Origin: an uncultured virus (IMG/VR IMGVR_UViG_2667527737_000002)
Taxonomy: Duplodnaviria > Heunggongvirae > Uroviricota > Caudoviricetes
Strand: one strand, 5' to 3'
Length of the DNA: 20,000 bases
IMG/VR virus record: IMGVR_UViG_2667527737_000002
The position numbers and the translations under genes are program-made. Below the pieces are notes generated by a model, which worked only from the letters and a program-made list of their open reading frames with translations, made no database searches and was not told the DNA's origin. Below are positions 1,334 through 20,000 of this stretch, piece after piece (position 1 is the stretch's first letter; each line of letters starts with the position of its first letter).

Positions 1334-1342
1334 GGAATCCCA

Positions 1343-1723
1343 ATGTTCAACCCTGATAAATACCGTTCTGTTAAATGGCAGAAGGGCGGCAGAGCCTACC
1401 CGCTACTTGACTGCTTCGGCATTGTGAACGAGATACGCCGCGATCTGAATTTACCCGTCTGGCCCGATTTTGCAGGGGTAACCAAAGACGACGGCGGCCT
1501 CGACCGGGAAGCACGCCGGATGATGCTTACCCTTGAGCGCTGCGAACCCTGCGAAGGGGCCGGGGTGGCCTGTTATTCCGGGTCGACTGTCACCCACGTA
1601 GGGATCGTGGTCAGTATCGGTGGTCTGTTGCATGTGGCGGAATGCAACCCGGGTACGAACGTCACCTTTCTGCCGTTGCCGCGGTTTAAGCGGCGATTTG
1701 TCAAAGTGGAGTTTTGGCAATGA
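1343..1723 (+). CDS. NlpC/P60-like tail assembly protein (gpK-like)
   Basis: 'W.KGGR.YP.LDCFG' catalytic Cys motif and 'HVGIV' His motif; TAAGGA RBS; stop overlaps next start (ATGA). Confidence 0.8.
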   Translation: MFNPDKYRSVKWQKGGRAYPLLDCFGIVNEIRRDLNLPVWPDFAGVTKDDGGLDREARRMMLTLERCEPCEGAGVACYSGSTVTHVGIVVSIGGLLHVAECNPGTNVTFLPLPRFKRRFVKVEFWQ

Positions 1724-4788: not shown

Positions 4789-4816
4789 TATCAAAAAAAT
4801 CCCTTTCAACTTTTCT

Positions 4817-4842
4817 TTCGCTCAAACCCTCGTTTGGGCGAA
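4817..4842 (+). repeat. Left invertase crossover site (gix/hix-like, 26 bp)
   Basis: TTCGCTCAAACC-CT-CGTTTGGGCGAA: 12-bp imperfect arms around an asymmetric CT core, with the TT..AAAC..GTTT..AA pattern of Hin/Gin/Cin sites; 25/26 identical to the reverse complement of 9809-9834. Confidence 0.9.
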
Positions 4843-4864
4843 TACCGTTTTGGAGCAAAAAAAC

Positions 4865-7207
4865 ATGGCCGAACTTAACCCGCCACTGGGCACGACGACG
4901 CCGGAAATATTCATGGACAACGTTAAGCGCGCTGACGAGCTGGTTAACGGTCCGGCCGGAACGGTTGACGACCGCGGCGGTGAACCGCTCGATACCTGGC
5001 GCCAGATGATGGCGAAAAACGATGAGGTAAGGCAGAACCTGATCCCACTTAGTAAGCAGTATCAGACGCTGGCGGCAGCGCAGGCGGATATTGTGAATAT
5101 TCCGGTGGGGTCGACCACGTATTACCGTAGCCCGGATGACAGCGCTTTAGCTGTAGAAGTGATCAATAACGCCGGTACGCTGCAGCCTACCGGGCGGAAA
5201 ATGCCATCTTATTCTTCGCTACGCGGGGCGAACATTCTGTTTGATGCTCTGAATGAATATTCAGCAAATGATCCTAAATTCGGTGCGTGGGACTGGTATC
5301 GCGGAGCAGTGGTCACTTTCAGCACTACTGATGCTAATATTCCGTTACCGACTCCAGTGGCACAGTATTCCGGCGTATGGTCTGCAGATAAATATTATGA
5401 CCTTGCCCGCCTGCCTGTAAGGGTTGGTGATAAGTTAACCTTTTCCGTGCTGGCGTGGTTCCAGGATGCCGGTGCTAAGTTCCATATTTTCTGGATGTCC
5501 ACCGCTGGCGCTGTTATTTCGTCTAAATCACAGCTTGCTCTGGCCGCCGGTATAAATACGCCGGTTATCACAGATGTCATTCCATCCGGCGCATCCTACG
5601 TCAGGATCCGGGTTGAAAATACTACGGCAGGGATATTTAAGGTCGGTGCTTATGCTGCTGCGTTGGGGGCTATTCAGCCTGATTTTGTTCGCGCCACGCC
5701 GGATAAAACTTATCTGTCAGCCGTCATATCATCCGGTATTTCGGGGTTAACATCACGCGTCGATGCGCTGCAGGGGGCTATCTCTGTTGGTTATGCTTAT
5801 GCAGCTGCCTGGCAAGTCGGGAAATTTATCAACCCAACTACAGGGGCCATCACTGATAACTCTGCGCTGAACTGCGCAATCATTCCGCATTCCGACGGGG
5901 ATGGCTGGCTGGTGACAGCCCTTGTGACAGGATCGGCGACTGCTCTGGCCGTGTACATGAACAGCGCCGGGATGGTATTGGGTGTTGAAGGGCGGGGAAC
6001 GGCAACCCCGCAGCAGTATACAAATTATCGTCTGAACGTTCCTGCCGGGACAACACAGATCGGTATAACCGGTCGTAACTCTGCGGAAATTCCTGTTAAA
6101 AAACTTGCTGTCGTTGAGACGGCCACAGTTCTGGCATCGATCGATTCTCTGGATGTCAGGGTACAGACAATAGAGGACTCTCTTGTATATGATTTTATTA
6201 AACAGGACGTCACGATTACCTCAGGAGCATATATAAACCGTGCTGATGGCAGTGTGGTGGTAAATGCTGCATTTGACTGTGCAATTTTTAATTATACAGC
6301 AGGAGACCGCTGGAAAGTCACAGCGAGGGTTAACGGCAGTGGAGTTTCACTCGCGGTGTATATGAACAGTGCCGGGACGGTTATCGGCACCGAAGGGAAC
6401 GGTACTACAGAATCGGTGGACTACACCGATTACGAGCTAACACCTCCTTCCGGCACCGCCAAAATCGGGATTACCACCCGTATAGCTGTGCCCATTATTG
6501 CCAAAAAATATGTAGTCGTACCCGGCGGAGGAAGTTCGGTGAGTCCGTGGTCTGAAAAAATTATCGATGTGATGGGTGACAGCAACGTTGCCTATAACAA
6601 ATGGCAACCCCTTGTCGCGGAGGCGCTGGGGTGTTCATTCCTGAATCATGGTATCGGTGGTTCGAAAATAGCCAAACCGGATAGCTCATCAACGCAAATC
6701 AGCATGTGCGACGATGCTCGAATTAATGCCCTGGACACATCAGCAGCGGCGTGGATTTGTGGCCCGTGGGGGACAAATGACTGGGCGCAAAATATTCCGA
6801 TTGGAACTATCACCGACACAGTAAACACAACTGTTTATGGTGCGCTGAACATCATCGCTCAGAAGTTGCGTGCGCGGTTCCCAACAAAACCTATCCTGTG
6901 GGCCACGCCGTTCAATGGGGACTATGATTCTCCACGCTCAGCGGCATGGGTTGACGGTGAAACAAATGGTTATGGGCGGGTTTCTGACTATGCAGCGGCC
7001 ATACGCGCCGTGGCGTTGCGATATGGATTCCCCCTAATAGACCTTAACGCTGACTGTGGCTGGACAAAATTCAATAGCACCAGTTTTTTGTTAACCGAGG
7101 GGGATACAAATCCGTCCCGTATCCACCTCAATGCAGACGCGGGGCCTGTACGAATTTCTTCTCTGGTAACAGACCGACTTACTGCTCTTCAGAAACTGGT
7201 TGGCTAG
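4865..7207 (+). CDS. Tail spike/receptor-binding protein A with repeated putative carbohydrate-binding modules and C-terminal SGNH esterase domain
   Basis: ATG at 4865 after GGAG. N-terminal anchor 'MAELNPPLGTTTPEIF...DTWRQMMAKND' shared with 8034-9785. SGNH blocks 'VMGDSN', 'GIGG', 'GTND', 'IHLN'. Internal duplicated ~86 aa module. Confidence 0.85.
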   Translation: MAELNPPLGTTTPEIFMDNVKRADELVNGPAGTVDDRGGEPLDTWRQMMAKNDEVRQNLIPLSKQYQTLAAAQADIVNIPVGSTTYYRSPDDSALAVEVINNAGTLQPTGRKMPSYSSLRGANILFDALNEYSANDPKFGAWDWYRGAVVTFSTTDANIPLPTPVAQYSGVWSADKYYDLARLPVRVGDKLTFSVLAWFQDAGAKFHIFWMSTAGAVISSKSQLALAAGINTPVITDVIPSGASYVRIRVENTTAGIFKVGAYAAALGAIQPDFVRATPDKTYLSAVISSGISGLTSRVDALQGAISVGYAYAAAWQVGKFINPTTGAITDNSALNCAIIPHSDGDGWLVTALVTGSATALAVYMNSAGMVLGVEGRGTATPQQYTNYRLNVPAGTTQIGITGRNSAEIPVKKLAVVETATVLASIDSLDVRVQTIEDSLVYDFIKQDVTITSGAYINRADGSVVVNAAFDCAIFNYTAGDRWKVTARVNGSGVSLAVYMNSAGTVIGTEGNGTTESVDYTDYELTPPSGTAKIGITTRIAVPIIAKKYVVVPGGGSSVSPWSEKIIDVMGDSNVAYNKWQPLVAEALGCSFLNHGIGGSKIAKPDSSSTQISMCDDARINALDTSAAAWICGPWGTNDWAQNIPIGTITDTVNTTVYGALNIIAQKLRARFPTKPILWATPFNGDYDSPRSAAWVDGETNGYGRVSDYAAAIRAVALRYGFPLIDLNADCGWTKFNSTSFLLTEGDTNPSRIHLNADAGPVRISSLVTDRLTALQKLVG

Positions 7208-7241
7208 CCACCAGTCTAACGTTGCTGCCTTAAACATGCTG

Positions 7242-7274
7242 AACTCCCCCGGTGTGCCTCCGGGGGAGTTTTTT
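7242..7274 (+). terminator. Intrinsic terminator between the convergent spike cassettes
   Basis: Perfect 11-bp stem AACTCCCCCGG / CCGGGGGAGTT with 7-nt loop, followed by a T run on the + strand; only a short T run on the - strand. Confidence 0.8.
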
Positions 7275-8031
7275 AATCCATAGATAATAAGAACTGCGCA
7301 ACAGAAACCTTCTCTGCTGAAGTAAGCACGCCCTCCATCAACAAAACCGACTTGATATACTTGGTCGTTGTTTCGTTGTTGTTATCAGTTTTCCTCCCCA
7401 GCAGGACATTATTTGTTCCGGCCACTCGGGTCCCAGAGAAAGCAGCTGATGATGATATCAGTGCCCCGGTCTGCGGGTTGTAAATATCAACGGTTACCGT
7501 CCCCTGGGTTATCGAGGCAGCAAACGCGAACAGATCACCTACGGCGATAGAGGCCGGGAATGCCGCATAGGCATACCCGGCCGAGGACTGACCATTATTC
7601 TGGCCTACACAAAAGAGATTCCCGGTCCCGTTCGTGAAGCCAATTGAAAAGCCACTCGCTGCTGAACCGCTACCTGAAAAATCTGCGATCATATGGGCGT
7701 TCAGTGAAGCCCCTCCGGCATTCCGTTTAGCCACACCACAGATTGTCAGCGTCAAAGGTGCTTTCTGGTTTGTATCCAGATAATCAGTATTGTTAACAGA
7801 GATATAACCGTCAGCATTATTCAGAGAACCATTGATGACGGCCGGAGCGTTTTTGTTATAGGAGTTATAAGTGATATCAGGCGCTGGCTCTCCAAAATAA
7901 TAACCAGCGAACGGTGTTGCACTGACATCCGGGAGCCCGACGAACCAGTTTGAAATAGTAAAGTCATCAAGGGTTTTCATCCCCGGTATGACGGGACCGT
8001 TCATATCAAGTAAAATGGCTGTAATAGGCAT
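7273..8031 (-). CDS. Hypothetical beta-rich protein, possibly ConA/LamG-like partner of spike B
   Basis: 252 aa, starts 2 nt after the spike B stop with RBS CAGGAG inside its last codons. Alternating beta-strand pattern ('LTICGVAK', 'FAFAASI', 'VLLGR'). The fold is inference. Confidence 0.6.
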   Translation of the reverse strand: MPITAILLDMNGPVIPGMKTLDDFTISNWFVGLPDVSATPFAGYYFGEPAPDITYNSYNKNAPAVINGSLNNADGYISVNNTDYLDTNQKAPLTLTICGVAKRNAGGASLNAHMIADFSGSGSAASGFSIGFTNGTGNLFCVGQNNGQSSAGYAYAAFPASIAVGDLFAFAASITQGTVTVDIYNPQTGALISSSAAFSGTRVAGTNNVLLGRKTDNNNETTTKYIKSVLLMEGVLTSAEKVSVAQFLLSMD

Positions 8032-8033
8032 AA

Positions 8034-9785
8034 TTACTCCTGAAAAAATTCTTTTTTGATTTTATTTATCAATATATATGCGCCAAGAGAGCTCAGGTGC
8101 AAACCATCCTCCCAGGCCCCATTGCTGTTATCGTACGTTTTCGAGAATAGCTGATATCCACTAATGAAGTTGACGTTATACTCAACAGCCAGTTCACGCA
8201 TGACAGCATCGTACTCTGACAGAGCTGGAGTACCAGTTGCATTACAGTGACCCGGTGACACCAGGCAAATACAGATGCCGGGCGTAGCTTCCCGAAACTT
8301 TGTAATTATTTCCACCAGTCCATTTCTATATTGCGTTGTCCCCTTGCTTAACCTGAAATCGTTTGTACCAAGGATGACGAACAACAAATCAATATCGAGA
8401 TACTGTACAACAGGTTTGATCCACTCAGAAAAATTAAAGAAATCACTTCCTATAGCCCCGCCATTCCCCATCCTTGAAACCGTTACGCCGGAACGCACAG
8501 CGCTGTTCTTTCCATACATCCCCAAAATGGATACAACCCCACTTCCCAGGCTCTGAATCGTTACGCTATGGGCTGTTGCGGATAGCCCACTGATATCGTG
8601 CTTTTTAGCTGCTCCGGTGTTCGCACCATTGACTGTTACAGGTGTGCCGCCATCAATTGTGATGGTAAACGAACCGGAACCATCATAATAGAAAACTGAA
8701 AGAGCGGTTGCTGTAATACCGGTCCAGGCCAGAGACCCAACAGTATTGTTATTGTAATACCCATTCCCATCAGGTCCGCATCCATACGGTGGCGGGTTCG
8801 TGTTATTACTCCCTCCATCATATTTCGTAAAGTTTGTTGCAACGACAGGCGATATGCCAGCCATGACACCATCAGCGCGGTTAGAGCAACTTATCCAGGC
8901 CGGGTCTTTATATATCCCACCAAGAACATTAATTAATAATTGTGGAATCGTGTTTTTTTCGTTCCATGAGTCACCAAAAAAAGCGGTATTAACACTCGCT
9001 GCCTGCCCACTGAAAACACGACCTTTTTTAAAGTTGAACTTATACTGGTCTCCTTCAATAAATGAACTGTCTGATTTTGCAGAAGCCCCACCGACAAGAT
9101 TTAAGATATACTTTTCAATATTTGGCCCAAATCCATAACCGTCATACATACCGTTATGGAACCATGCATAAACATTTCCATTTCTGTCGTGAACAAACGG
9201 AAAGTAATTTGGAGAGTAGTCTCCCTGGGGGAGAAATTTTTGTGCCCAGGCGTTAGGTACTGACTCAATGATTGTTCGTGCATTAGCGCCAAAATCAGCA
9301 ACGTCCCAACGTCCACCATCAAACCACGCGTAAACATTTCTGTTTCTATCGAAAAAAACAGGAAACCATGTCGACAGGTATTGACCAGGGACGAGTCGCT
9401 GATTGAGCTTTTTGTCGATGGTTTCTTCTGAGGGCAACACATTCCCGGTGGGTACCAGTGTTCCGGCTTCGTTTAAATACTCAATTGCTACTGCGTCGTC
9501 AGTGCTGCGGACATAGCAAACTGAGTCCACCGGTATCTGACCGTTGTTCACGGCTGCCTGTGCTTCCGATAATGTCGAATAGGGTAATCCAAGCGCAGTA
9601 ATACTTTTGCGGGCGTCTTCAGTAACCTGATCATTTTTCGCCATCATTCCGCGCCAGGTATCCAGCTCAACGCCAGCGCGATCCGGCTCAGTCAGCTCGG
9701 ACCCATTGACCAGCTTATCCAGGCGCTCGGCATTATCGAGCAGCACAGCGGGAGACGTGCTCCCCAGCTCCGGGTTAAAGGCCAT
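8034..9785 (-). CDS. Tail spike/receptor-binding protein B with SGNH esterase domain (antisense to tail operon in this orientation)
   Basis: 583 aa. N-terminal anchor 'MAFNPELGSTSPAVLLDNAERLDKLVNG...DTWRGMMAKND' homologous to spike A. SGNH blocks 'FFGDSW', 'GNGG', 'LGTND', 'DGLH'. Confidence 0.85.
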   Translation of the reverse strand: MAFNPELGSTSPAVLLDNAERLDKLVNGSELTEPDRAGVELDTWRGMMAKNDQVTEDARKSITALGLPYSTLSEAQAAVNNGQIPVDSVCYVRSTDDAVAIEYLNEAGTLVPTGNVLPSEETIDKKLNQRLVPGQYLSTWFPVFFDRNRNVYAWFDGGRWDVADFGANARTIIESVPNAWAQKFLPQGDYSPNYFPFVHDRNGNVYAWFHNGMYDGYGFGPNIEKYILNLVGGASAKSDSSFIEGDQYKFNFKKGRVFSGQAASVNTAFFGDSWNEKNTIPQLLINVLGGIYKDPAWISCSNRADGVMAGISPVVATNFTKYDGGSNNTNPPPYGCGPDGNGYYNNNTVGSLAWTGITATALSVFYYDGSGSFTITIDGGTPVTVNGANTGAAKKHDISGLSATAHSVTIQSLGSGVVSILGMYGKNSAVRSGVTVSRMGNGGAIGSDFFNFSEWIKPVVQYLDIDLLFVILGTNDFRLSKGTTQYRNGLVEIITKFREATPGICICLVSPGHCNATGTPALSEYDAVMRELAVEYNVNFISGYQLFSKTYDNSNGAWEDGLHLSSLGAYILINKIKKEFFQE

Positions 9786-9808
9786 ATTTTTTGCTCCAAA
9801 AAAGAGGC

Positions 9809-9834
9809 TTCGCCCAAACGAGGGTTTGAGCGTA
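9809..9834 (-). repeat. Right invertase crossover site (26 bp, inverted relative to left site)
   Basis: Plus strand TTCGCCCAAACG-AG-GGTTTGAGCGTA; reverse complement matches 4817-4842 at 25/26; lies 43 bp upstream of the invertase ATG. Confidence 0.9.
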
Positions 9835-9877
9835 AGAGTAGAGCTTTTTACAATCAGCTATTTCAACGGGTTACAAC

Positions 9878-10426
9878 ATGCTGATTGGCTATGCACGGGT
9901 CTCTACAGGGGATCAAAACCTCGATTTACAGAAAAACGCGCTGATCCGCGCAGAATGTGAGCTGGTTTTTGAAGACACGGCCAGTGGGAAGAATGCCAGG
10001 CGGCCAGGGCTAAAACGCGCGATGCGACGACTCCGATCGGGGGACGTGCTGGTGGTGTGGAAGCTGGACAGGCTGGGCCGCAGCGTGCGCGATCTGATTA
10101 CGCTCGTGTCGGAGCTACAGGCGCGCGGGGTGAATTTCCGCAGCCTAACCGACAGCATCGATACCAGTACTCCAGCAGGCCGCTTTTTTTTCCACGTCAT
10201 GAGCGCCCTGGCGGAAATGGAGCGCGAGCTGATCGTCGAGCGTACCCGAGCGGGGTTAGCCGCAGCGAGAGAGCAGGGGAGAGTAGGCGGGCGCCGCCGG
10301 GTAATGACCACTGAGGTTGTGGAGCGGTGTCGCAGAATGCTGGAGAACGGCGCTACCCGGCAGCAGGTAGCAGATGTCATCGGGGTAGGAGTGAAGACTA
10401 TTTATAAATATTTTCCTGCCCAATAA
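9878..10426 (+). CDS. pin: Serine recombinase, DNA invertase of the Pin/Gin/Hin family
   Basis: 'MLIGYARVST' catalytic Ser motif, 'GDVLVVWKLDRLGRS', 'ERT.AGL.AAR..GR.GGR', C-terminal HTH ending 'TIYKYFPA'. Confidence 0.95.
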   Translation: MLIGYARVSTGDQNLDLQKNALIRAECELVFEDTASGKNARRPGLKRAMRRLRSGDVLVVWKLDRLGRSVRDLITLVSELQARGVNFRSLTDSIDTSTPAGRFFFHVMSALAEMERELIVERTRAGLAAAREQGRVGGRRRVMTTEVVERCRRMLENGATRQQVADVIGVGVKTIYKYFPAQ

Positions 10427-10515
10427 AGCGGTCCACCGGCGAGTTGGTTGCGGTGTTTGACGGTGATTAACGGGCTTTCTTATACGAAATATGCTTAAGA
10501 CACTCATCTTTTAAT

Positions 10516-10543
10516 GTGACATTAAGCGGTGGTGGTATAGAAT
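10516..10543 (+). promoter_or_regulatory. Possible sigma70 promoter of the TM/Nudix moron
   Basis: GTGACA-N16-TAGAAT about 40 bp upstream of the ATG; the -35 lies within the palindrome TTAATGT-G-ACATTAA (10511-10525). Confidence 0.35.
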
Positions 10544-10584
10544 TATCTAAACTGGACATAACATGTTAATAAATAGGGGGTTTG

Positions 10585-11202
10585 ATGTCAGTCTCTAAAG
10601 ATTTCCTGCTTTCGGTATATGAGCGGTGCAATGAACATTTGAAAGAACAATCGACCAAGCGTGATCAGGCAATAGCTTTTTATTTGGTTGTTATATCGTT
10701 TTATTTCGGCTCATACTCAGCAATTAGCAAGTTATTGGTAAGTCCGTACTCCCCTATTTTTTTTAATGTGGTTATATGTCTGATTAGTGGTATGACAATC
10801 AGAACGTTGTCTGGTTTACGTTCATGGCATATGCAATATGCCAACTCGGCGTTAGCGCTTAATAAAGTGATATCGAAAAACATCTTTGAATTAGATGCTC
10901 TTAATTTAGAGATTAAGTCTTTCTTCGATAAGAAAGAAAAGGAATATCATGAAATGTCGCTTGCTAAAATGTTCTCTGGTATTGAAAATCGAGTCATTCT
11001 TGGGATGACTCTTATTTCCGGGTTTCCGGTTGTGATGTTAGTTAAAGAGGTTATGTCTTTACTCAAAGTAAGTAATAAAGAAATCATAGTGTTAGTTGAG
11101 TGCGCGTTTTACCTGGCATATGTTGTATATTATTTCTACAATACTATAATGATAATTCGCGAGTCAGCAAATCATAAAACTTGGATTGTAAATTTTGAAT
11201 AA
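10585..11202 (+). CDS. Hypothetical membrane protein, ~4 TM segments
   Basis: AT-rich ORF with AGGGGG RBS and ATG at 10585. Hydrophobic stretches 'AIAFYLVVISFYFG', 'IFFNVVICLISG', 'VILGMTLISGFPVVMLV', 'IIVLVECAFYLAYVVYYF'. Confidence 0.75.
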   Translation: MSVSKDFLLSVYERCNEHLKEQSTKRDQAIAFYLVVISFYFGSYSAISKLLVSPYSPIFFNVVICLISGMTIRTLSGLRSWHMQYANSALALNKVISKNIFELDALNLEIKSFFDKKEKEYHEMSLAKMFSGIENRVILGMTLISGFPVVMLVKEVMSLLKVSNKEIIVLVECAFYLAYVVYYFYNTIMIIRESANHKTWIVNFE

Positions 11203-11674
11203 GATTATTGTTGAAAATCAATACGTGACGGTGTTTTTTAATGACTCCGGGCACTTGCGCATAAGCCAAAAGCATGGAGGTGTTGTTGTTATTCCTGAGT
11301 GTAATGGAAAGTACGCATTAATTCAACATTCAAGAAATGGTGTTGTGCTTATTGAGTTTCCAAGAGGGTTTATTGAAAATGGTGAATCTCATATAGATGG
11401 TGCTGAACGCGAACTTAGAGAAGAATTGAATCTCGTTTCGGTCAATAGCTATTTATTAGGTGAATTGGTTACTGATTCAGGATTGATTACTGACAATGTT
11501 CGGGCTGTTATTTGTGAAGTGAAAGATACATCTCAGTTATTATTGCAATCAAGCGAGGGTGTTATAGGTTGTGATTATTATACTTATGATGAAGTTATTG
11601 AACTTGTAAAGAATGGGAAGGTTAAAGATAATTTCACCTTGGCCTCATTAATGCTATTACAGGCTAACAGGTAA
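11195..11674 (+). CDS. Nudix hydrolase (ADP-ribose pyrophosphatase-like)
   Basis: Nudix box G-x5-E-x7-RELxEE ('GFIENGESHIDGAERELREELNL'); 'EFPRG', 'TDSG' and 'GKVKDNFT' resemble NudF/NudE-type enzymes. TTG start overlaps the upstream gene by 8 nt. Confidence 0.85.
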   Translation: MNKIIVENQYVTVFFNDSGHLRISQKHGGVVVIPECNGKYALIQHSRNGVVLIEFPRGFIENGESHIDGAERELREELNLVSVNSYLLGELVTDSGLITDNVRAVICEVKDTSQLLLQSSEGVIGCDYYTYDEVIELVKNGKVKDNFTLASLMLLQANR

Positions 11675-11902
11675 TGTTTCACAGGCAACCCTATGGCCGT
11701 TTAATTTGTTGAACGTTTCAGCGACCGTATACAAAAACTCGTCAAGAGCTGTTTACTATGGAGTCAGTGTTATAGGTATGGGGGCATAATGCTGGATTTG
11801 CACTGCTCGCACAACCGTCAAACAGTTCAGTATAGAAAACGCTCGTTACTCATTACATCAATGTGTTACGTCAATGGCGTAAATTGATAGTCAGAGCCTA
11901 TA

Positions 11903-11944
11903 TTGATATGTCGCCCTGTTAAAACTACTGTATATAAAAACAGT
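11903..11944 (+). promoter_or_regulatory. umuDC SOS promoter with LexA box
   Basis: TTGATA (11903-11908)-N17-TACTGT (11926-11931). LexA box CTGT-ATATAAAA-ACAG at 11928-11943 matches the CTGT-N8-ACAG consensus. Confidence 0.9.
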
Positions 11945-13854
11945 GTGCGCCGGGAGACCGGTTAGAGATCAAGGGGTGAAAGTCCCCGACCATTGAAGGA
12001 CCAGCAATCCACAAGGTCCCCGAGTCATGCGTTGCATACCGCGAGGTATGGGGCGAAGCGTTGACAGGGGTGTTGACAGGCCAGCCATTGAGCCACGAAA
12101 TGTATATTAAATTACCGGGTGCCGACGTTGTACTGTTAACGGAAGGCAACATCATAGGGTGCGATACTGCGAGTGCCACATGGACCCGGCGGGGTCTGAG
12201 ACCCTGGCATGTCAATACGATCTCTACGCGGGAACCGGGAGATCTCCCCTCTGACCATCTGCCAGTGTCGGAGATGGCCCGCACCGGGAAGACGAGGAGT
12301 CATAGCCGGTGATGTACGGAGAGGAGAAGTCGGACTCGCTCATAGTAGCGGCGAAGCAGGCGAACAACCCGAAAGGAGCGGAGTCAGTGGAGCGAAGGAG
12401 CGGGGCCAAGGGGAACGCGGAACAGCCACACATGCGCCGGACACAGAGCCGGGAAAGCATGTCACAGAGGCTGTCACGCGTGCGGGAAGCTGCGAAGCAG
12501 CGGAAGAAAGAACGGTTTACAGCATTGTTCCACCTGCTGACAGTCGAAGCACTGGAAGCCGCATTCCTCTCCCTGAGCAGGAAAGCGGCCGCCGGAGTGG
12601 ATGGCATCAGGTGGATGGACTACGCCGGAAACATGAAGAACAACATAACAGATCTGCACCGGAGGCTACATCAGGGCAGCTACAGGGCGCAGCCCGGCAG
12701 GCGTCACTACATCCCAAAAGCGGATGGAAAACAACGCCCGCTCGGCATCGCCTCGCTGGAGGACAAGATCGTCCAGTATGCGCTGGTGAAAATCCTGAAC
12801 GCAGTCTATGAAAACGACTTTATGGGGTTCTCATACGGGTTCAGACCCGGGCGAAGCCAGCACGATGCACTGGACGCACTGGCCACAGGGCTGGTACGCA
12901 CTAACGTAAACTGGGTACTGGATGCCGACATCAGTCAGTTCTTCGACAGGGTGAGCCACGAATGGCTGATCAGGTTCACAGAGCATCGGATCGGCGACCG
13001 GAGGGTAATCAGGCTCATACGTAAGTGGCTCACAGCCGGGACGTCGGAGGAGGGTCAATGGCGAGCAACGGAGGAAGGCACCCCACAGGGTGCGGTCATC
13101 TCACCGCTGCTGGCAAACATATACCTCCACTACGTCTTCGATCTGTGGGCGCATCAGTGGCGACGTCGCTATGCCACAGGCAATGTGGTAATGGTCAGAT
13201 ACGCCGATGACATCGTCATCGGGTTCGACAAACGATACGATGCCCGGCGCTTCCGTATAGCCATGCAGCGCAGACTGAGGGAGTTCGGACTCACGGTTCA
13301 CCCGGAGAAAACCCGTCTGATGGAGTTCGGCCGCTTCGCTGCCGAAAACCGTGCCATCAGGGGAAAAGGCAAACCAGAAACGTTCAACTTCCTCGGGTTC
13401 ACGCACATCAGCGGGAAAGATCGCAACGGCAGGTTCATGCTGATACGAAAGACCCGCCGGGATCGGATGACGGCAACTCTGAAAGCCATCAAAGACGGTC
13501 TGCGAAGGCGCTGGCATTACTCAATCCCCGAACAGGGAAAATGGCTCAGGAGAGTGGTTCAGGGATACCTGAACTATCACTCGGTACCGGGCAACTTCCC
13601 CACCATGCAGAAGTTCAGGACACACGTAACAAACCTCTGGCGCCGGGCGCTCAGGCGCAGGAGCCAGAAGGATGATACGACCTGGACGAAAGCAAACAAA
13701 CTGGCAGCCGCATGGCTACCAAGGGTTCGGGTTCTTCATCCATGGCCTGTGGAGCGGTTCACCGCCAGACACCCGAGGCAGGAGCCCGGTGCGTAAATCG
13801 CGCACGCCGGGATCTGTGCGGGGGGTATCCGGTAACGGGTATCCCTACCGCGAC
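11945..13854 (+). mobile_element. Group II intron, full length (1910 nt)
   Basis: 5' end GTGCG at 11945; domain V 'GAGCCCGGTGCGTAAATCGCGCACGCCGGGATC' (~13782-13814, AGC triad, AC bulge); domain VI hairpin ending ...CCCTACCGCGAC at 13854. Removal restores TACTGTATATAAAAACAGT|ATTAAT upstream of umuD. Confidence 0.95.
12309..13796 (+). CDS. ltrA: Group II intron reverse transcriptase/maturase without endonuclease domain
   Basis: RT motifs '[14 protein letters not shown]', 'SYGFRPGRS', '[14 protein letters not shown]', 'RYADD', 'FNFLGF'; maturase X domain 'GYLNYH'; no HNH domain. Stop codon lies within domain V. Exact start uncertain. Confidence 0.95.
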
Positions 13855-13875
13855 ATTAATGTGAGCGAGACTATT

Positions 13876-14295
13876 ATGCAGTTCTACACGCCCGTTGAGT
13901 TACGTCAGATCATGCTGCTCCCGTTGTACAGCGACCTTGTGCAATGTGGTTTTCCAAGTCCTGCGCAGGATTACGTTGAGCAACGTATCGATCTGAACGA
14001 GTTGCTCGTTAACCACCCCAGTGCGACGTATTTTGTCAAAGCCGCCGGCGACAGCATGAAAGACGCCGGCATAGGGGAGGGTGATCTTCTGGTAGTGGAT
14101 AGCTCAAGGACAGCAGTTCATGGTGATATCGTTATTGCTGCTGTGGATGGGGAATTCACCGTTAAGAAGCTGCAGCTGCATCCGCGGGTTCAGCTTAACC
14201 CAATGAACCCTGCATATTCGCCAATAGTCGTCGGTAGTGAGGACACTCTCGACGTGTTCGGAGTGGTTACGTATATCATAAAATCAGCTGGCTAA
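13876..14295 (+). CDS. umuD: DNA polymerase V subunit UmuD
   Basis: 139 aa from the ATG at 13876; '[14 protein letters not shown]' cleavage site, 'GDSM' Ser and 'FTVKKL' Lys of the S24 peptidase dyad. Confidence 0.95.
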
Positions 14296-14296
14296 G

Positions 14297-15562
14297 ATGT
14301 TTGCGCTTTGTGATGTGAATTCATTTTACGCATCGTGCGAGACCGTATTTCGTCCTGACCTGAAAGGGCGTCCGGTGGTTGTTCTGTCAAACAACGACGG
14401 CTGTGTGATCGCCCGCTCGCCGGAGGCGAAGCCTTTCGTCAAAATGGGTGAGCCTTATTTCAAGCAAAAGGACATGTTTCGCCGGCACGGTATTATCGCG
14501 TTTAGCAGCAACTATGAGCTTTATGCCGATATGTCCAACCGAGTGATGACAACGCTGGAGGAACTGTCTCCACGCTGCGAAATTTACAGTATTGATGAGG
14601 CATTTTGCGATCTGACAGGTGTTCGTAATTGTCGCGACCTTACCGACTTTGGCCGGGAAATTCGCGAGACGGTTCTGCGCAGGACGCACCTCACGGTCGG
14701 TGTCGGCATAGCCCAGACTAAAACCCTGGCAAAGCTGGCCAATCACGCGGCGAAACAGTGGCAGCGGCAGACCGGAGGAGTGGTGGATCTATCTAATCAG
14801 GAACGGCAAAGGAAGTTGATGGCTTTGCTTCCGGTGGATGAAGTCTGGGGGGTCGGGCGCCGCATCAGTAAAAAACTGGAGGCAATGGGCATTAAAACAG
14901 TGCTTCAACTGGCGGATACCGATATCCGTTTTATCCGGAAGCATTTTAATGTGGTTCTGGAGCGAACAGTGCGGGAGCTGCGCGGCGAGCCATGCCTCGG
15001 GCTTGAGGAGTTCGCACCGTTAAAGCAGGAAATCGTTTGCAGCCGTTCGTTCGGCGGTCGTATCACGGAATACCATGAGATGAGGCAGGCAATATGCAGC
15101 TATGCGTCGCGCGCAGCGGAGAAACTCCGTGGCGAGCATCAGTATTGTCGGTTCATCTCAGCGTTCGTTAAAACCAGTCCCTTTACGCTTAACGAGCCAT
15201 ACTACGGAAACAGCGCATCATTAAAGCTGCTAACGCCAACCCAGGACAGCAGGGACATAATCACCGCGGCGACGAAATGCCTCGATGTAATCTGGCGAGA
15301 CGGACATCGCTATCAGAAAGCAGGTGTGATGCTGGGGGATTTCTACAGTCAGGGCGTGGCACAGCTCAACCTGTTTGACGATAACGCACCGCGGAAAAAT
15401 AGCGGAAAACTGATGGAGGTCCTGGATCATCTGAATGCCAAAAATGGGAGAGGGGCGCTGTACTTTGCCGGCCAAGGAATCCAGACCGCCTGGCAGATGA
15501 AACGAGAAATGCTATCCCCGCGCTATACTACGAGGTTCTGTGATCTGCTCAAAGTTAGATGA
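14297..15562 (+). CDS. umuC: DNA polymerase V catalytic subunit UmuC
   Basis: 'MFALCDVNSFYASCE', 'VLSNNDGC', 'YSIDEAF', 'QLNLF' clamp motif, 'W.MKREMLSPRYTT'. Confidence 0.97.
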   Translation: MFALCDVNSFYASCETVFRPDLKGRPVVVLSNNDGCVIARSPEAKPFVKMGEPYFKQKDMFRRHGIIAFSSNYELYADMSNRVMTTLEELSPRCEIYSIDEAFCDLTGVRNCRDLTDFGREIRETVLRRTHLTVGVGIAQTKTLAKLANHAAKQWQRQTGGVVDLSNQERQRKLMALLPVDEVWGVGRRISKKLEAMGIKTVLQLADTDIRFIRKHFNVVLERTVRELRGEPCLGLEEFAPLKQEIVCSRSFGGRITEYHEMRQAICSYASRAAEKLRGEHQYCRFISAFVKTSPFTLNEPYYGNSASLKLLTPTQDSRDIITAATKCLDVIWRDGHRYQKAGVMLGDFYSQGVAQLNLFDDNAPRKNSGKLMEVLDHLNAKNGRGALYFAGQGIQTAWQMKREMLSPRYTTRFCDLLKVR

Positions 15563-15596
15563 TTCGACTATTAACGGTAGTGGTCATGCTGCTACT

Positions 15597-15626
15597 GCGG
15601 TCCGCTTAGAGTGAGAAGCGGACATC
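15597..15626 (-). repeat. Palindromic site S1 (putative tyrosine recombinase site)
   Basis: Minus strand GATGTCCGCTT-CTCACTCT-AAGCGGACCGC; 8-bp perfect stem; related to S2-S5. Confidence 0.7.
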
Positions 15627-15717
15627 GTGACTCGAACAGGATTCATGCTAAGATAAGGCTTTGATGAAAAGGCATTTAATTGCTAGAAGTTGGCGAAAAC
15701 AATGAAAGGGATACGTA

Positions 15718-15978
15718 ATGTTTACCCCAGAGTTTATAAATGAAGAACGCGGCGAATTTCTCCTTGTGGCCAACCACGCTCTGGCATCACCGGAATCGAT
15801 AAAACTCAGTATTGCATACAATTTTGCCAGAATATGCTGGGGGCTATCGCAGCTTCCACCGCACATTCAAACTTGCCGGGTCGTCTATGACATCAGAGGG
15901 CAATCCATCCCTGATCAGGTTCAGGCCCAGATCAGGCAAGCACTTGAGCAGATAGCCATGGTGGAGTTTAAGAGCTGA
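15718..15978 (+). CDS. Small hypothetical protein, possibly degenerate restriction-endonuclease-fold
   Basis: 86 aa with AAGGGA RBS; 'LP....RVVYDIRGQ' recalls the C-terminal motif of some REase-fold polymorphic toxin domains; TGATG overlap with next gene. Confidence 0.6.
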   Translation: MFTPEFINEERGEFLLVANHALASPESIKLSIAYNFARICWGLSQLPPHIQTCRVVYDIRGQSIPDQVQAQIRQALEQIAMVEFKS

Positions 15979-16214
15979 TGGGACTTCAGTTAATTATCAA
16001 AGCAGAACGTAACAAGATAGAAAAAGCATTGGGATCGCTGACACCAGAGTGTGAAATATTCCCGGTCGCTGAAGGCCTTTTCGGTATTTCCATTCCGGAA
16101 CGAAGTCTCTCATCCGCGGGTGAATCTGCAGTTCTAAAAAAACTTGAACCACTCACACGTTTTGACCTATGGCAGGGAGCCTGGCAAGAACCCAGGCGAC
16201 GTTGGTTTTGGTGA
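15978..16214 (+). CDS. Small hypothetical protein
   Basis: 78 aa, translationally coupled (TGATG) with GGAG upstream; Trp-rich C-terminus 'DLWQGAWQEPRRRWFW'. Confidence 0.6.
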   Translation: MGLQLIIKAERNKIEKALGSLTPECEIFPVAEGLFGISIPERSLSSAGESAVLKKLEPLTRFDLWQGAWQEPRRRWFW

Positions 16215-16315
16215 GTTTCAGCGCTGAGTGAGATGGGGAAGTCGCATTGCGTGCTGGGCGCAGATCGCCTGTCTTCATTAGCAAAGCGGCTTAAGGCTCT
16301 CAGTACTCAGATATG

Positions 16316-16345
16316 AATGTCCGCTGCTGGCACAGGGCTGCTGTT
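16316..16345 (+). repeat. Palindromic site S2
   Basis: AATGTCCGCTG-CTGGCACA-GGGCTGCTGTT; left arm and spacer match S4, right arm degenerate; 15 bp from the recombinase stop codon. Confidence 0.65.
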
Positions 16346-16360
16346 GCAGCCCTGACAACC

Positions 16361-16963
16361 TTAGACTTCAATCGATTCAGAGATCTCTAACGCATCATCG
16401 ACTTCGATGCCCAGATAACGGACTGTGCTTTCCAGTTTCTTATGGACCAACAGAAGTTGGATCACCAGGAGATTCTTGGTTTTCTTGTATATCAGGTAAG
16501 GTTTTGTTCTTCTCATGGAATGTGTACTGTAAAGCGAAGCTTCGAGACCAAGCTTTTCTACCCACCCATGAAAAATTCGGCTGTATTGTCGGGTTGATAT
16601 GTGCCGGTTAGTTCCGATCCGAGACCGAAACAAGAAGTCTTTACTGTGCAAATTGCCAAGCTTTATCAACGCAGCAACAACTTCTCTTGTCCCTTTGGTT
16701 ATCTCGAATTGCACAGGGCTACCGGTTTTCTGTTGCAGCATCGTTGCTCTGCTTGAAACCGAACTACCATATGCAACATCAGATACTTTGAGGTTCATCA
16801 GATCACAGCCTCGTAGCTTACTGTCTAAGGCCATATTGAACAGAGCTAAATCACGCGTTTTACCTTCCAGTTCAAGCCGGATTCGGATCCCCCAGATATG
16901 AGATATCTGAAGTAGTTTTTTTTGGCCTATGATACGGTCTTTATTCCACGGTGACGTGTTCAT
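16361..16963 (-). CDS. Short tyrosine recombinase (catalytic domain only)
   Basis: 200 aa from the ATG at 16963 after GGAG. Catalytic set R ('KLRGCDL'), K ('QQKTG'), HxxR ('HSMRRT'), H ('LLVH'), Y ('TVRYLG'). Too short for an N-terminal core- or arm-binding domain. Confidence 0.9.
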   Translation of the reverse strand: MNTSPWNKDRIIGQKKLLQISHIWGIRIRLELEGKTRDLALFNMALDSKLRGCDLMNLKVSDVAYGSSVSSRATMLQQKTGSPVQFEITKGTREVVAALIKLGNLHSKDFLFRSRIGTNRHISTRQYSRIFHGWVEKLGLEASLYSTHSMRRTKPYLIYKKTKNLLVIQLLLVHKKLESTVRYLGIEVDDALEISESIEV

Positions 16964-16999
16964 ACTCAAATCTCCTGCAATATGGGAGATTTGAGTATG
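16961..16999 (-). promoter_or_regulatory. Perfect 15-bp hairpin covering the RBS and start codon of the recombinase
   Basis: CATACTCAAATCTCC (16961-16975) / GGAGATTTGAGTATG (16985-16999), 9-nt loop. Confidence 0.75.
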
Positions 17000-17029
17000 G
17001 TTGTCCCTTATGAGCGAAGAGCAGAAGTT
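17000..17029 (-). repeat. Palindromic site S3
   Basis: Minus strand AACTTCTGCTC-TTCGCTCA-TAAGGGACAAC; spacer resembles S1; directly abuts the leader hairpin. Confidence 0.65.
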
Positions 17030-17111
17030 CGAAGCGTCTCTAACCTAGATTGAATTCATTTTTTTTACAAATTTTATCAAAATCAATCTCTAAATATCAT
17101 CACACATGTTT

Positions 17112-17984
17112 TCATCCGTAATATTCATGTTTTGATCTGTGCTTATTTTCAATAATTTCTATTATCGCTGATTCTTTCCAAACAATTGCTAGGTCGGGAT
17201 AAATATTACTTCCGGAATGTATTAATTGAGAACGTCCTGAATAGACTCCTCCAAAGGTATAGCATTGTGACATAATCATATCGTCAATGTTTTCCTTTCC
17301 TTTCGGCAAAGTAAATCCATTTGATTTTATAAATACAGCAGAGCCTGACATGCCAGTTTTAGTTGTAGCTGTATCAATAAAATACTTAGGTAGATTGTCA
17401 ATGTTTACATCATGTTCAGAGGCTACACTACCTCTTTTCCATATTGGTAGATTCCCCCCGGCAACCATACCTAGAGGATAACCGATAAGGAATGCATCCA
17501 TACCAGCTTTAATATCAAAATCTTCCAAATTCAGCTCATTTGAATTAACAGGTAAGATAGCAAATCCATTTTCTTTTAAGGTTTTCATGGTGTCGTTAAC
17601 AGGTATTGCAATTATATCGACCTTGTTCTCATGGTTTGGGTGTTCAAACCATATAGGTGCATATTCACCATTGTCCTCCTCGTATAAATTAAGTTTAAGA
17701 ACATTTCTCCATGATAAATAAAAAGAGTTACCTACAGCCTCTATTCTTTTAGGAAGATAAAGAGTCATGAGGTTAGGAACTGATAAATTGATGGTATCTA
17801 ATGGCTTTCCGGTTAAGGAGTTTCTTCCTGTAACGTTATGCCAGTTTGTTATTAAATAGATCTTCTCATTAAAACAATAAAAAAATGCAGTGGCTGTACT
17901 CAGAATTGTTAACTCATCGCTGTCAGCATTCCCTCTACACATTTCTATCTTAAATGATGTTAAACTTAAATTGTTAATTGACAT
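17112..17984 (-). CDS. Trypsin-like serine protease
   Basis: AT-rich 290 aa ORF, AAGGGG RBS. Triad motifs 'YLITNWHNV' (His), 'VDIIAI' (Asp), 'GMSGSAV' (Ser), plus 'IGYP'. No signal peptide evident. Confidence 0.85.
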   Translation of the reverse strand: MSINNLSLTSFKIEMCRGNADSDELTILSTATAFFYCFNEKIYLITNWHNVTGRNSLTGKPLDTINLSVPNLMTLYLPKRIEAVGNSFYLSWRNVLKLNLYEEDNGEYAPIWFEHPNHENKVDIIAIPVNDTMKTLKENGFAILPVNSNELNLEDFDIKAGMDAFLIGYPLGMVAGGNLPIWKRGSVASEHDVNIDNLPKYFIDTATTKTGMSGSAVFIKSNGFTLPKGKENIDDMIMSQCYTFGGVYSGRSQLIHSGSNIYPDLAIVWKESAIIEIIENKHRSKHEYYG

Positions 17985-18118
17985 TATAACCCCTTATTTT
18001 AACTTCTTGGTGCCGGCGGATAAAACAGCAATATAAACACTACGTGAAAGTAAATTGCGAATGATTATAGGCCAAACCAATGATAATGTCACTTGACATT
18101 AAAGATTGCAGCGTAAAG

Positions 18119-18148
18119 AACGTCTGCTCTTGGCACATTGCAGACATT
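18119..18148 (+). repeat. Palindromic site S4
   Basis: AACGTCTGCTC-TTGGCACA-TTGCAGACATT; overlaps the SRAP stop codon. Confidence 0.7.
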
Positions 18149-18833
18149 ACGTATTTATTGGGGGCTCGATCGCCTCAATTAATTCTGGCCCCTGATTTTT
18201 AACATTACCCACGGCGCGCGTCACGGCGTGCCAGATAAACTTGTCGGCGGGCACTGCTCCGTCGGTGGCTATCTCTTCGGCTTCCTTCCCGCCTATATCC
18301 AGGCGCATCCATTCGCGTGCGGCTTCCGGCACCAGGACGAGTGATCGGCGGTCGTGAATATCGACCAGCCCTTGGTCAGCAGCTGCAGTCACTATCAAAA
18401 ATCCTTCAGCTTCGTCGCCGCGTTGAAAAGGTACACTCCCGATCGCCGCCATGAAGATGGGCTTGCCGTCTTTACGGTGGATGAAATAGGGCTGCTTCTT
18501 GTCACCTTCACGCTTCCACTCAAACCAGCCGTCTGCAAAACAAATTGCTCTCCCGTGCTGCCACAGGGATTTAAACATCCTGCTGCTGGCAGCAGTCTCA
18601 ACCCGGGCATTAGTCGATGGGGGTTTATCCCACCACCCAGGCGCATAACCCCAGTGGATCGGATCGAGGTGCAACTGTTCGTCGCGTTCGCTCAGGAGCA
18701 AAACTTTAGTCCCCGGTGCCACGTTGTACCGGCCGATTGGTTCGGGGTCATAAGCGATATCCCGCTCGGCCTCTTCAGCCAAATAAGCCTGGTACTCTTC
18801 ACGGGTTTGTGATTGAGCAAAGCGTCCACACAT
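18147..18833 (-). CDS. yedK: SOS response-associated peptidase (SRAP/HMCES family, YedK-like abasic-site protein)
   Basis: N-terminal 'MCGRF', 'RYNVAPG', 'NARVET', 'DGWFEW', 'IHDR'; GGAGGT RBS; convergent with umuC. Confidence 0.93.
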   Translation of the reverse strand: MCGRFAQSQTREEYQAYLAEEAERDIAYDPEPIGRYNVAPGTKVLLLSERDEQLHLDPIHWGYAPGWWDKPPSTNARVETAASSRMFKSLWQHGRAICFADGWFEWKREGDKKQPYFIHRKDGKPIFMAAIGSVPFQRGDEAEGFLIVTAAADQGLVDIHDRRSLVLVPEAAREWMRLDIGGKEAEEIATDGAVPADKFIWHAVTRAVGNVKNQGPELIEAIEPPINT

Positions 18834-18943
18834 GGTTACCTCCAGTCTTCAGAATGAAAGTATAGAAGGAGAGACTCTGGACGATGGGGTTGTATTAGGA
18901 ATAGCGACATTCGTCATCAATCGCACTTGGCCTACTGATGGCG

Positions 18944-18973
18944 AATGTCCGATATGATAAAATAGCGAACATT
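18944..18973 (-). repeat. Palindromic site S5 (more diverged spacer)
   Basis: Minus strand AATGTTCGCTA-TTTTATCA-TATCGGACATT; same 11-8-11 layout and arm consensus; ~50 bp past the AbiH-like stop. Confidence 0.5.
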
Positions 18974-19022
18974 ACCCCTTTTACTAACATGCCTATTTAG
19001 CCGAGCACTACTTTCGTTGTAG

Positions 19023-20000
19023 TCACGACCTTACCAGCAGGCTACATACTGGCACAATTAGGGGATATTCAATGCCTATGCTCTGCAATGCATGTAGGTG
19101 TTGATCACGTTCTTTTTCAAGATACCATGTCGCTGTCCAGGTCGAATTAGGCTGGACGTGTTGTTTAATGGCAGCGAAGTAAGGCATGTCGACCGCTGAT
19201 AAAGAGTGTCCAATTATGATCACCTCGTTTACCGCGTTGAGTTGAGAGAAAAATGATTGGTTTGCATCTATCACTTCCTCTGTATTTTTGAATGAGTGGG
19301 TAAAGTACCGATTCAGAGTCTGTTTTCCTATTTCATATGCAAAATCGTAATTATCAGACATGTGTTGATACCACTGTTCTAGCTCCTCATCCGTTGCGTC
19401 CGTGGGCGGCTCTTGAGGAGGCTCTTTGAAATTTTCAGGATCAATCCCATGCCCCAGTATAAGCCTATCCCCAGGTAAGGATGCATTGCCGTGGATGTAA
19501 AGAATCTGGTTTCTTTTTATTCCGTAATAGCATTCAATAGTTCTGGTGTAATTAAAGTTTATAAATAGGGCATTGTTGCATAGTTGCAGTGTTTTATCGA
19601 CGGTAAACTCTGGGTATTTAACTTGAGAAATAAACGACATAAACTGGGTGAAAATACCATCAGTTAAATTTTCAAGAATTCGCTGCATTTCAATTTCAAA
19701 AGCATGCCAGTCTCTATCACGAAAATCTGGGTCACCCAGATTTGGGAGATAATCGGTAAATGCATCCAGTACAGCCTGAGAATCTAACCCTGCCAGATTA
19801 CTTTCAAATTCACACCACAGACGATGTTCATCCTCATTCAGTTCGTCAATATTTTCAGGGAGTTCTGTGAAACCGACAAACTCAATTAAGTTGTTGTACG
19901 AATCCCTCTGGTGAGATCGCAAAAAATAGGCAAAAGAACAATAGCTGGTATCAAGACCATGGTGTAAATCAAATCCGTTTCCAGTTATGTAAAGTTTCAT
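19023..20000 (-). CDS. abiH: AbiH-family abortive infection protein (SIR2-like fold)
   Basis: 'LYITGNGFDLHHGLDTSY', 'INFNYT', 'YIHG', 'LILGHG', 'IIGHSLSAVDMPYF' motifs. The ATG sits at the very edge of the window, so the start is unconfirmed. Confidence 0.85.
   Translation of the reverse strand: MKLYITGNGFDLHHGLDTSYCSFAYFLRSHQRDSYNNLIEFVGFTELPENIDELNEDEHRLWCEFESNLAGLDSQAVLDAFTDYLPNLGDPDFRDRDWHAFEIEMQRILENLTDGIFTQFMSFISQVKYPEFTVDKTLQLCNNALFINFNYTRTIECYYGIKRNQILYIHGNASLPGDRLILGHGIDPENFKEPPQEPPTDATDEELEQWYQHMSDNYDFAYEIGKQTLNRYFTHSFKNTEEVIDANQSFFSQLNAVNEVIIIGHSLSAVDMPYFAAIKQHVQPNSTWTATWYLEKERDQHLHALQSIGIEYPLIVPVCSLLVRS

Follow-up and report, generated by a model that had tools for sequence, protein, structure and literature searches.

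The window, that is, the 20,000-nucleotide stretch of DNA from the uncultured virus IMGVR_UViG_2667527737_000002 (IMG/VR; Caudoviricetes) analyzed here, carries at its end five related 30-bp sites (S1 to S5) interspersed with cargo genes and with a gene for a tyrosine recombinase of 200 amino acids. Comparison with other genomes indicates that this region (15597..20000) is probably part of a site-specific gene-cassette exchange system. A sequence-only reading of the same DNA had proposed an integron- or pdif-like platform, and our comparisons support that proposal through the enrichment of the sites near homologs of the recombinase and the change of cargo at the sites. The sites, the grammar of their arrays, the breakpoints and the cargo appear from the comparison of sequences, and they are presented in this order below.

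Two types of sites in the window

Each site consists of two inverted 10-bp arms around a 10-bp center. On the plus strand, the sites read GCGGTCCGCT TAGAGTGAGA AGCGGACATC for S1 (15597..15626), AATGTCCGCT GCTGGCACAG GGCTGCTGTT for S2 (16316..16345), GTTGTCCCTT ATGAGCGAAG AGCAGAAGTT for S3 (17000..17029), AACGTCTGCT CTTGGCACAT TGCAGACATT for S4 (18119..18148), and AATGTCCGAT ATGATAAAAT AGCGAACATT for S5 (18944..18973). All five belong to the minus strand, which is that of the recombinase gene, and from S1 to S5 the types are A, B, A, B, and A. Read along the recombinase gene, type A has the consensus AAYGTCCGCT-YYTCGCTCAY-AGCRGACCTT with the core TCGCTCA, and type B the consensus NNNGTCCGCT-TTGTGCCAGR-AGCGGACRTT with the core GTGCCAG. 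Among the window sites, S3 has the consensus A core, S1, which forms the umuC-side end of the array, has TCACTCT (one mismatch to TCGCTCA), and S5 combines good arms with a decayed core; the B cores are GTGCCAG in S2 and GTGCCAA in S4.

The sequence-only reading had located the five sites correctly, apart from a shift of one base at S3. The alternating orientation with two spacer classes that it described is correct; reverse complementation of the A center gives the B center save for two of the seven core positions. The 11-8-11 layout assigned to the sites is replaced here by a 10-10-10 layout with an invariant 7-bp core, which fits better. The description of the sites as imperfect palindromes applies to S1, S4, and S5, with 8 of 10 complementary arm positions each as read from the sequences (S1 has 8-bp perfect inverted arms), and does not extend to S2 (5 of 10) and S3 (3 of 10). 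These two sites, which flank the recombinase gene, are half-sites plus a core rather than palindromes.

For scoring, we used matrices made from sites of other genomes, with two window sites among the seeds. The scores of S1 to S5 are 30.8, 25.4, 30.0, 35.0, and 16.0 bits with the full matrices and 30.8, 19.3, 30.0, 32.8, and 16.0 bits without the two window seeds; the maximum in shuffled sequence was 9.5 bits (1.52 million positions). No comparable site was detected elsewhere in the window, the best score across 1-15500 being 1.5 bits. The simple motif AAYGTCYGCT, with at most one mismatch, has nine matches in the window, seven of them inside 15617-18973. Window-wide, this count is unremarkable (shuffle mean 4.2; nine or more in 9 of 200 shuffles), and it is the clustering of the matches, rather than their total number, that stands out.

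Additional AATGTC/GACATT palindromes are present at 18084-18101, adjoining S4 (TAATGTCA..TGACATTA), and at 18906-18949, overlapping S5 (GACATTCGTCATCA..TGATGGCGAATGTC). These may represent accessory or remnant half-sites.

Site enrichment and array grammar

A protein search yielded 135 homologs of the recombinase, 77 in loci from species genomes and 58 in loci from viral contigs. These loci, together with the window and three further loci (2.12 Mb in total), were scanned at a threshold of at least 10 bits, which returned 299 sites, all above the shuffled maximum of 9.5 bits. Enrichment of the motif near this recombinase family had been set beforehand as a test of the platform reading, and the outcome is in its favor. 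The density of the B pattern was 80.8 per Mb in the 36 enteric recombinase loci, compared to 343 matches in 201 whole genomes. Site density was 0.35-0.39 per kb up to 4 kb from the recombinase gene and dropped to 0.07-0.15 per kb at distances of 6-10 kb.

Types A and B alternate in 163 of the 187 same-strand neighbor pairs. The 96 B-to-A pairs are spaced by 51-9758 bp and enclose cargo. Among the 67 A-to-B pairs, 34 enclose a linker of 3-12 bp (exactly 12 bp in 23 of them), 24 span intervals of 649-655 bp that correspond to the recombinase gene, and 4 hold a truncated recombinase copy. The arrays follow the grammar B-cargo-A, with either the recombinase gene or a 12-bp linker separating this unit from the next B.

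Cargo changes at the sites

In a megablast search with 15400-20000, no record covered more than a quarter of the stretch. Each interval is found alone elsewhere at 90-95% identity (15600-16334, 16316-17030, 17003-18149, and 18965-19999), and the block ends in the fetched examples bear the same site types. The protease block (17003-18149) is present at about 95% identity in the 30 Klebsiella plasmid records listed, and 1030 plasmid records matched at least in part; a contig from an RNA library of another strain matches exactly 17003-18149 and diverges at both ends. The recombinase block (16316-17030) is 92-94% identical in E. coli chromosomes. A remnant of a P2-like prophage in E. coli carries at its end the small-gene block (15600-16334; 91.4% identity), flanked by an A site and a B site. 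The abiH block, as present in E. coli with 91% identity, begins inside S5, at 18965. The YTGGCACA-type site that the sequence-only reading had predicted upstream of abiH would lie past the window end. In an E. coli prophage (L141), the abiH cassette is 90.6% identical and lies between an A and a B site, and the B-type (YTGGCACA) site is there, 145 bp upstream of the cassette.

Two backbones show what happens at the ends of an interval. In a related Klebsiella record (L140), umuD and umuC are followed by genes for DUF2971 and DUF4238 proteins in place of the three modules of the window. Homology between the two extends from umuC through the first arm and core of the A site (S1), stops there, and restarts inside the B site (S4), continuing at about 95% into the SRAP region; thus, cargo changes exactly at the sites, as the platform reading had predicted. 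The second backbone, hokD...DUF977, is shared by two E. coli lambdoid prophages (L002 and L141) that carry different cassettes in the interval, and here an A site marks the end of backbone homology on one side and a B site its start on the other. The SRAP gene itself, previously taken for a module of the array, is instead backbone between two cassette slots, and in L140 it likewise comes after a B site. This backbone position explains why the SRAP interval, like only a few other A-to-B intervals, corresponds neither to a linker nor to the recombinase gene.

The exchange point can be narrowed down at the sites that flank the recombinase gene. At the upstream A site, the part that stays constant with the gene starts within TCGCTCAT and includes the degenerate arm AAGGGACAAC, the recombinase-side arm of S3 (19 distinct contexts listed); the other arm and the first two bases of the center vary with the neighboring cargo. 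The downstream B site retains AACAGCAGCC-CTGTGCCA as its constant part, where AACAGCAGCC is the recombinase-side arm of S2, and all sequence past it, after GTGCCA, varies; the recombinase-linked half is identical in 15 of the 18 distinct contexts listed. Because the constant parts end inside the A core and within GTGCCA, the joints lie in the 7-bp cores. In Cre/loxP and Xer/dif, the corresponding overlap region of tyrosine recombinase sites is where strands are exchanged.

The identity common to exchange partners at these sites is essentially a 7-8-bp core plus one arm, which is too short for RecA-type homologous exchange. This argues against a passive role of the palindromes, as insulating terminators or repetitive extragenic palindromic (REP)-like repeats, with exchange by short-homology or illegitimate recombination that resolves in the 30-bp stretches. 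Such a role would agree with the capacity of the sites to form hairpins and with their occurrence in every intergenic gap, and a 2026 study of P2/P4 hotspots names homologous or illegitimate recombination among conceivable mechanisms (PMC13586616). We nevertheless consider it quite improbable: no T-run follows the site stems, as read from the window sequence, and strict A/B alternation in a single orientation, fixed 12-bp linkers, and a dedicated recombinase alongside would be unexpected for passive repeats.

The recombinase

The recombinase gene (16361..16963, minus strand) encodes a protein that consists of a catalytic domain only (PF00589, E 1.5e-14, residues 36-186). The catalytic residues R51, K79, H148, R151, H174, and Y183 are all present and are conserved in an alignment of 29 homologs. 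The domain is preceded by about 35 residues that include a nearly invariant PWNK..GQK motif. The confident AlphaFold model (predicted local distance difference test [pLDDT] 86.6, predicted template modeling [pTM] score 0.83) is most similar to XerA (5hxy, E 1e-8), XerH, the integron integrase IntI (2a3v), Cre, and the Tn1549 integrase; the matches to XerA, XerH, IntI, and Cre range from E 1e-8 to 1e-6 and cover only the catalytic halves. The alignment covers positions 110-258 in the XerA model (263 positions) and 126-281 in the XerC model (295 positions), and the 200 amino acids of the protein compare to 313 in the solved IntI chain 2a3v_A. The view that the enzyme is neither IntI nor XerC/D is upheld by the NCBIfam scores, which fall far below the cut-offs (45 versus 220 bits for the XerA/integron-integrase model, 35.4 versus 335 for XerC, and 22.4 versus 267 for XerS). 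Homologs are 58-96% identical and range from Enterobacterales to Pseudomonas, betaproteobacteria, and a few other phyla. We also considered the IntKX subgroup as the family of the recombinase and rejected it; IntKX is a different group of island integrases (PMC8138268).

Two hairpins are linked to the gene. A perfect 15-9-15 inverted repeat (16961..16999, minus strand) spans the GGAG ribosome-binding site and the ATG of the recombinase. An inverted repeat at the same place is also found 5' of homologs, with different sequences in distant clades, and the changed sequence in Pseudomonas and betaproteobacterial loci looks like covariation. A terminator-like perfect 9-bp hairpin (16333..16354), located just 3' of the stop codon and overlapping the recombinase-side arm of S2, is conserved together with the gene.

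Distribution of the sites and the recombinase

The recombinase was detected in 22 of 201 Enterobacteriaceae species genomes (E <= 1e-20). The B-type pattern, with at most two mismatches, is present in 80 of the 201 genomes (343 matches versus 3 for a reversed-pattern control), including 20 of the 22 recombinase-positive ones. Contig 2 of one genome, G021 (L142-L144), has long integron-like rows in which short cassettes are separated by A-(9-10 bp)-B composites; one of these loci (L144) has seven cassettes in 6.3 kb. In phage P2, fun(Z), between the tail-fiber genes and the FI promoter, has a B site on one side (15332-15361, 31.6 bits) and an A site on the other (17429-17458, 33.9 bits). Neither an A nor a B site was found in the whole genome of phage P4 (L145), where the best score was 5.1 bits.

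In the loci of non-enteric homologs, the enteric arm consensus has 25 matches in 1.16 Mb versus 2 in 0.50 Mb of shuffled sequence; this consensus is enteric, and those clades need their own models. In the Pseudomonas-type loci (L033, L038, L043, L051, L055, L068, L074, and L102), inspection of the flanks by eye revealed recombinase-flanking sites with similar arms and another center: TTGGCCGGT upstream of the recombinase and its exact reverse complement, ACCGGCCAA, downstream. Unlike the enteric A and B sites, the two appear to have a single core in common.

A possible mechanism of exchange

We propose that the small recombinase is the enzyme that acts on the sites, to which it is linked by association, and that pairing is core specific. 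The 200-amino-acid protein would bind the 10-bp inverted arms (consensus AAYGTCCGCT / AGCGGACRTT) and exchange strands in the central region. The two site types, with common arms and distinct 7-bp cores, would recombine only with their own kind, A with A and B with B. Every module, lying between B and A, could then be replaced by two crossovers between replicons (A/A and B/B), and this replacement would amount to a natural recombinase-mediated cassette exchange. Alternatively, modules might be gained or lost as circles between two same-type sites; circles formed between two A or two B sites would bring cargo and a composite site into another array. The recombinase gene would occupy the A-to-B position that is elsewhere taken by the 12-bp linker, and the hairpin over its start would keep translation low. 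The slot in the window may have grown from one to three modules when a circle with the content "recombinase-B-small genes-A" integrated at an A site.

Recombination of A with B, which would result in inversion, should be blocked because A and B are inverse to each other and their cores differ. In the Cre and Flp systems, spacer mismatches block exchange between sites. An invertible switch, in which A x B recombination flips the cargo and turns genes on or off, as done by recombinases of FimB/FimE size, is a very improbable account of the arrays. It would make sense of the inverse orientation of A and B around cargo, of the FimB-like size of the enzyme, and of the even orientation of the genes (of 76 distinct cassettes, 38 have their largest open reading frame [ORF] on the site strand and 38 have it on the opposite one). 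Against it, the A and B cores consistently differ at two of seven positions, which should block exchange, and genomes differ in gene content, not just in orientation. The recombinase has no match to the FimB/FimE family at E <= 0.001 in NCBIfam, and no inverted form was seen in the contigs examined, which drop rare variants.

Several observations weigh against an exchange system driven by this recombinase. Strand switches (22) and 24 of the 187 same-strand neighbor pairs are exceptions to the grammar. Because near-duplicates are numerous among the loci, the counts given above are not independent, and the matrices were seeded on matches to arm and core, which makes the conservation tables partly circular. 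In the window itself, the core of S5 is degenerate (TGATAAA versus the usual TGAGCGA), and the recombinase has the substitutions P17L, R166L, and G173V at columns that are at least 90% conserved. The window array is identical in three contigs, and 14 runs from 10 studies (2013-2022) contain all sampled words; the array is static here, and the window may derive from some of these 14 runs. Compared to a Klebsiella variicola plasmid (L001) with about 95% identical cargo, the window has differences at 3 of 10 positions in the cargo-side arm at the B end of its protease cassette. Sites also outnumber the enzyme: B-pattern sites occur in 60 of the 179 genomes without a recombinase at E <= 1e-20, and G021, likewise without one at this threshold, has 25 B-pattern matches and long arrays. 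Therefore, the small recombinase works in trans or is only transiently present, or it is not the enzyme of the sites.

The last of these options amounts to genuine recombination sites served by another enzyme (for example, host XerC/XerD, a resident phage integrase, or an unrecognized protein), with the small recombinase as a passenger module. In Acinetobacter, dif modules are moved by the host Xer proteins. Apart from the sites and arrays in genomes that lack the recombinase, this option is favored by the protein itself, in which no N-terminal core-binding domain was found by NCBIfam alignment or fold comparison; simple tyrosine recombinases combine a core-binding and a catalytic domain (PMC8138268). 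We consider another enzyme unlikely all the same. The recombinase is always located between A and B, with gene-specific half-sites (24 intervals of 649-655 bp; 19 contexts), and site density is highest beside it. Distant homologs have related arms with another spacer, as expected if enzyme and sites co-evolve. In addition, the arms do not appear dif-like. Action of the small recombinase on the sites thus remains the reading that we prefer.

Cargo of the cassettes

The cargo is rich in known defense systems. The median cassette is about 1.7 kb long, and most cassettes contain one or two genes. They have no preferred orientation and therefore must carry their own promoters. A PADLOC scan of the 80 longest of 141 representative cargo ORFs and four further window proteins gave matches to defense models for 32 of the 84 proteins. 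These include Old, PtuA/PtuB (Septu), SIR2-HerA, DUF4297-HerA, bSEFIR, PD-T7-1, dCTPase, and dGTPase, as well as NsnABC, Lit, a type IV restriction enzyme, AbiG, AbiV, JukA, and AbiH of the window.

In the explanation that fits best, three modules occupy the slot that umuC and SRAP delimit, namely, the small gene pair, the recombinase, and the protease, and AbiH lies in a second slot past SRAP. The first cargo module (15718..16214, plus strand) consists of two overlapping ORFs of 86 and 78 amino acids, for which no match was found in Pfam, PADLOC, NCBIfam, or PHROGs. The second (17112..17984, minus strand) encodes a trypsin-like serine protease (PF13365) that matches PDC-S45 in PADLOC (E 1.8e-18), and this protease is a candidate defense gene. 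The third (19023..20000, minus strand) is the AbiH abortive-infection gene (PF14253; PADLOC AbiH), with its B boundary past the window end.

Relation to known systems

The system resembles a cross between integrons, dif modules, and engineered lox exchange, and it departs from each of the three in features that define membership. Like integrons, it combines a tyrosine recombinase with arrays of short cassettes, which here are joined by imperfectly palindromic composites of about 70 bp (A, a 9-12-bp linker, and B); many defense genes are among the cargo, and arrays often occur without the enzyme. Unlike in integrons, the enzyme has 200 amino acids, consists of the catalytic domain only, and scores 45 versus 220 bits on the XerA/integron-integrase model. 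It lies inside the array between two sites, with cassettes on both sides, and not at the head, and the cassettes are oriented 38:38, so they are not read from one promoter. The sites also have other sequences, and one 10-bp arm is used four times. The core sites of attC are RYYYAAC ... GTTRRRY, and the cores conserved here are TCGCTCA and GTGCCAG. An A-linker-B composite might conceivably fold into a single long hairpin, as attC does; the arms are so near to the consensus that covariation is uninformative on this point.

With the pdif modules of Acinetobacter, the arrays share arm-spacer-arm sites of alternating orientation, the use of one site by adjacent modules, and the exchangeability of each interval. 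One feature of these modules, namely, alternating sites that bound them, is present here (163 of 187 pairs and all five window sites). The pdif sites are dif-like, with the layout XerC-6 bp-XerD, and are used by host Xer. Here, the same arm is repeated in inverted form around a center of about 10 bp, there are two alternating cores, and a dedicated small recombinase travels along; the site consensus does not appear dif-like.

Cre/loxP with heterospecific lox sites, as used in engineered cassette exchange, has two inverted arms around an asymmetric spacer, and Cre is among the best fold matches of the recombinase. Common to both is a cassette with incompatible spacers at its two ends, which is therefore exchanged and neither inverted nor deleted. 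The arrays described here would be a natural version, with an enzyme that is one third shorter and lacks the N-terminal DNA-clamping domain, and the incompatibility of A and B is suggested by their sequences. In contrast to the FimB/FimE invertases, to which the enzyme has no family match, the segments here differ in gene content between genomes. Finally, the repeats that flank the Z/fun locus of P2-like coliphages fall within the system, the same A and B sites bracketing P2 fun(Z). The title of a 2004 paper by Nilsson, Karlsson and Haggard-Ljungquist (Mol Biol Evol 21:1) refers to site-specific recombination in P2-like phages, and that work may already describe these repeats.

Full-text literature searches, whose reach did not extend to Nilsson et al. 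2004, returned no description of this recombinase together with these sites, and the arm sequences as a text query gave only unrelated primer matches. The terms "inverted repeat" and "palindrom" are absent from the available text of three hotspot papers (Rousset 2022, Egorov 2024, and Moura de Sousa 2026); "recombinase" is absent from that of the first two, and in that of the third, tyrosine recombinases figure only as P2/P4 integrases. The 2026 study of thousands of P2/P4 elements considers, as routes of exchange with other mobile elements, transposons, which were not found, homologous recombination, for which flanks are required, or illegitimate recombination, and states that defense genes enter predictable hotspots by a mechanism that presumably differs, how exchange takes place being unknown (PMC13586616). 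On balance, we lean slightly toward seeing in the system a third kind of natural gene-cassette platform, so far undescribed, next to integrons and dif modules, in which a catalytic-only recombinase and two incompatible, inverse site types would move anti-phage systems.

If so, it would supply the missing mechanism by which anti-phage systems hop among P2-type hotspots, lambdoid prophages, plasmids, and chromosomal islands across Proteobacteria. Defense genes of prophages and plasmids turn over very fast, and the swapping of modules at the sites could explain this speed; the sites bracket the P2 hotspot fun(Z) and cassettes with Old, Septu, SIR2-HerA, Lit, AbiH, and numerous unknown genes in prophages and plasmids of E. 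coli and Klebsiella. Should the recombinase move the cassettes, the mechanism would be directly testable, and the sites would be a cheap marker for new defense genes. A recombinase of 200 amino acids with 30-bp sites and two incompatible spacers would also make a compact tool for cassette exchange.

Other features of the window

The window represents the end of a Klebsiella-type prophage, its tail genes, group II intron reverse transcriptase, umuD, and umuC matching Klebsiella records. The umuC gene (14297..15562, plus strand; Pfam IMS/IMS_C/DUF4113) is the backbone gene that flanks the cassette slot on one side. On the other side is the SRAP (YedK-like) gene (18147..18833, minus strand; PF02586, NF007413), whose stop codon abuts the backbone-side arm of S4. 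The two small ORFs of the first module overlap by ATGA and travel as a single cassette.

In the Klebsiella variicola plasmid L001, the protease cassette has a gene for an IS110-family transposase (4950-5945) directly next to its A site. Palindromic recombination sites, attC among them, are targets of some IS110/IS1111 elements.

In contigs of three runs, the 5' part of SRAP together with its upstream sequence (18589-18847) recurs as a direct repeat of 259 bp, located outside the window, about 1.2 kb past 19100 and beyond abiH. Two of the runs have this repeat in identical form, the third shows 44 differences, and AbiH thus lies between the full SRAP gene and an SRAP fragment. At the other end of the region, the ORF for the group II intron reverse transcriptase/maturase (12309-13796) ends within the long umuD-containing ORF (13672-14295), which places the intron immediately 5' of umuDC.

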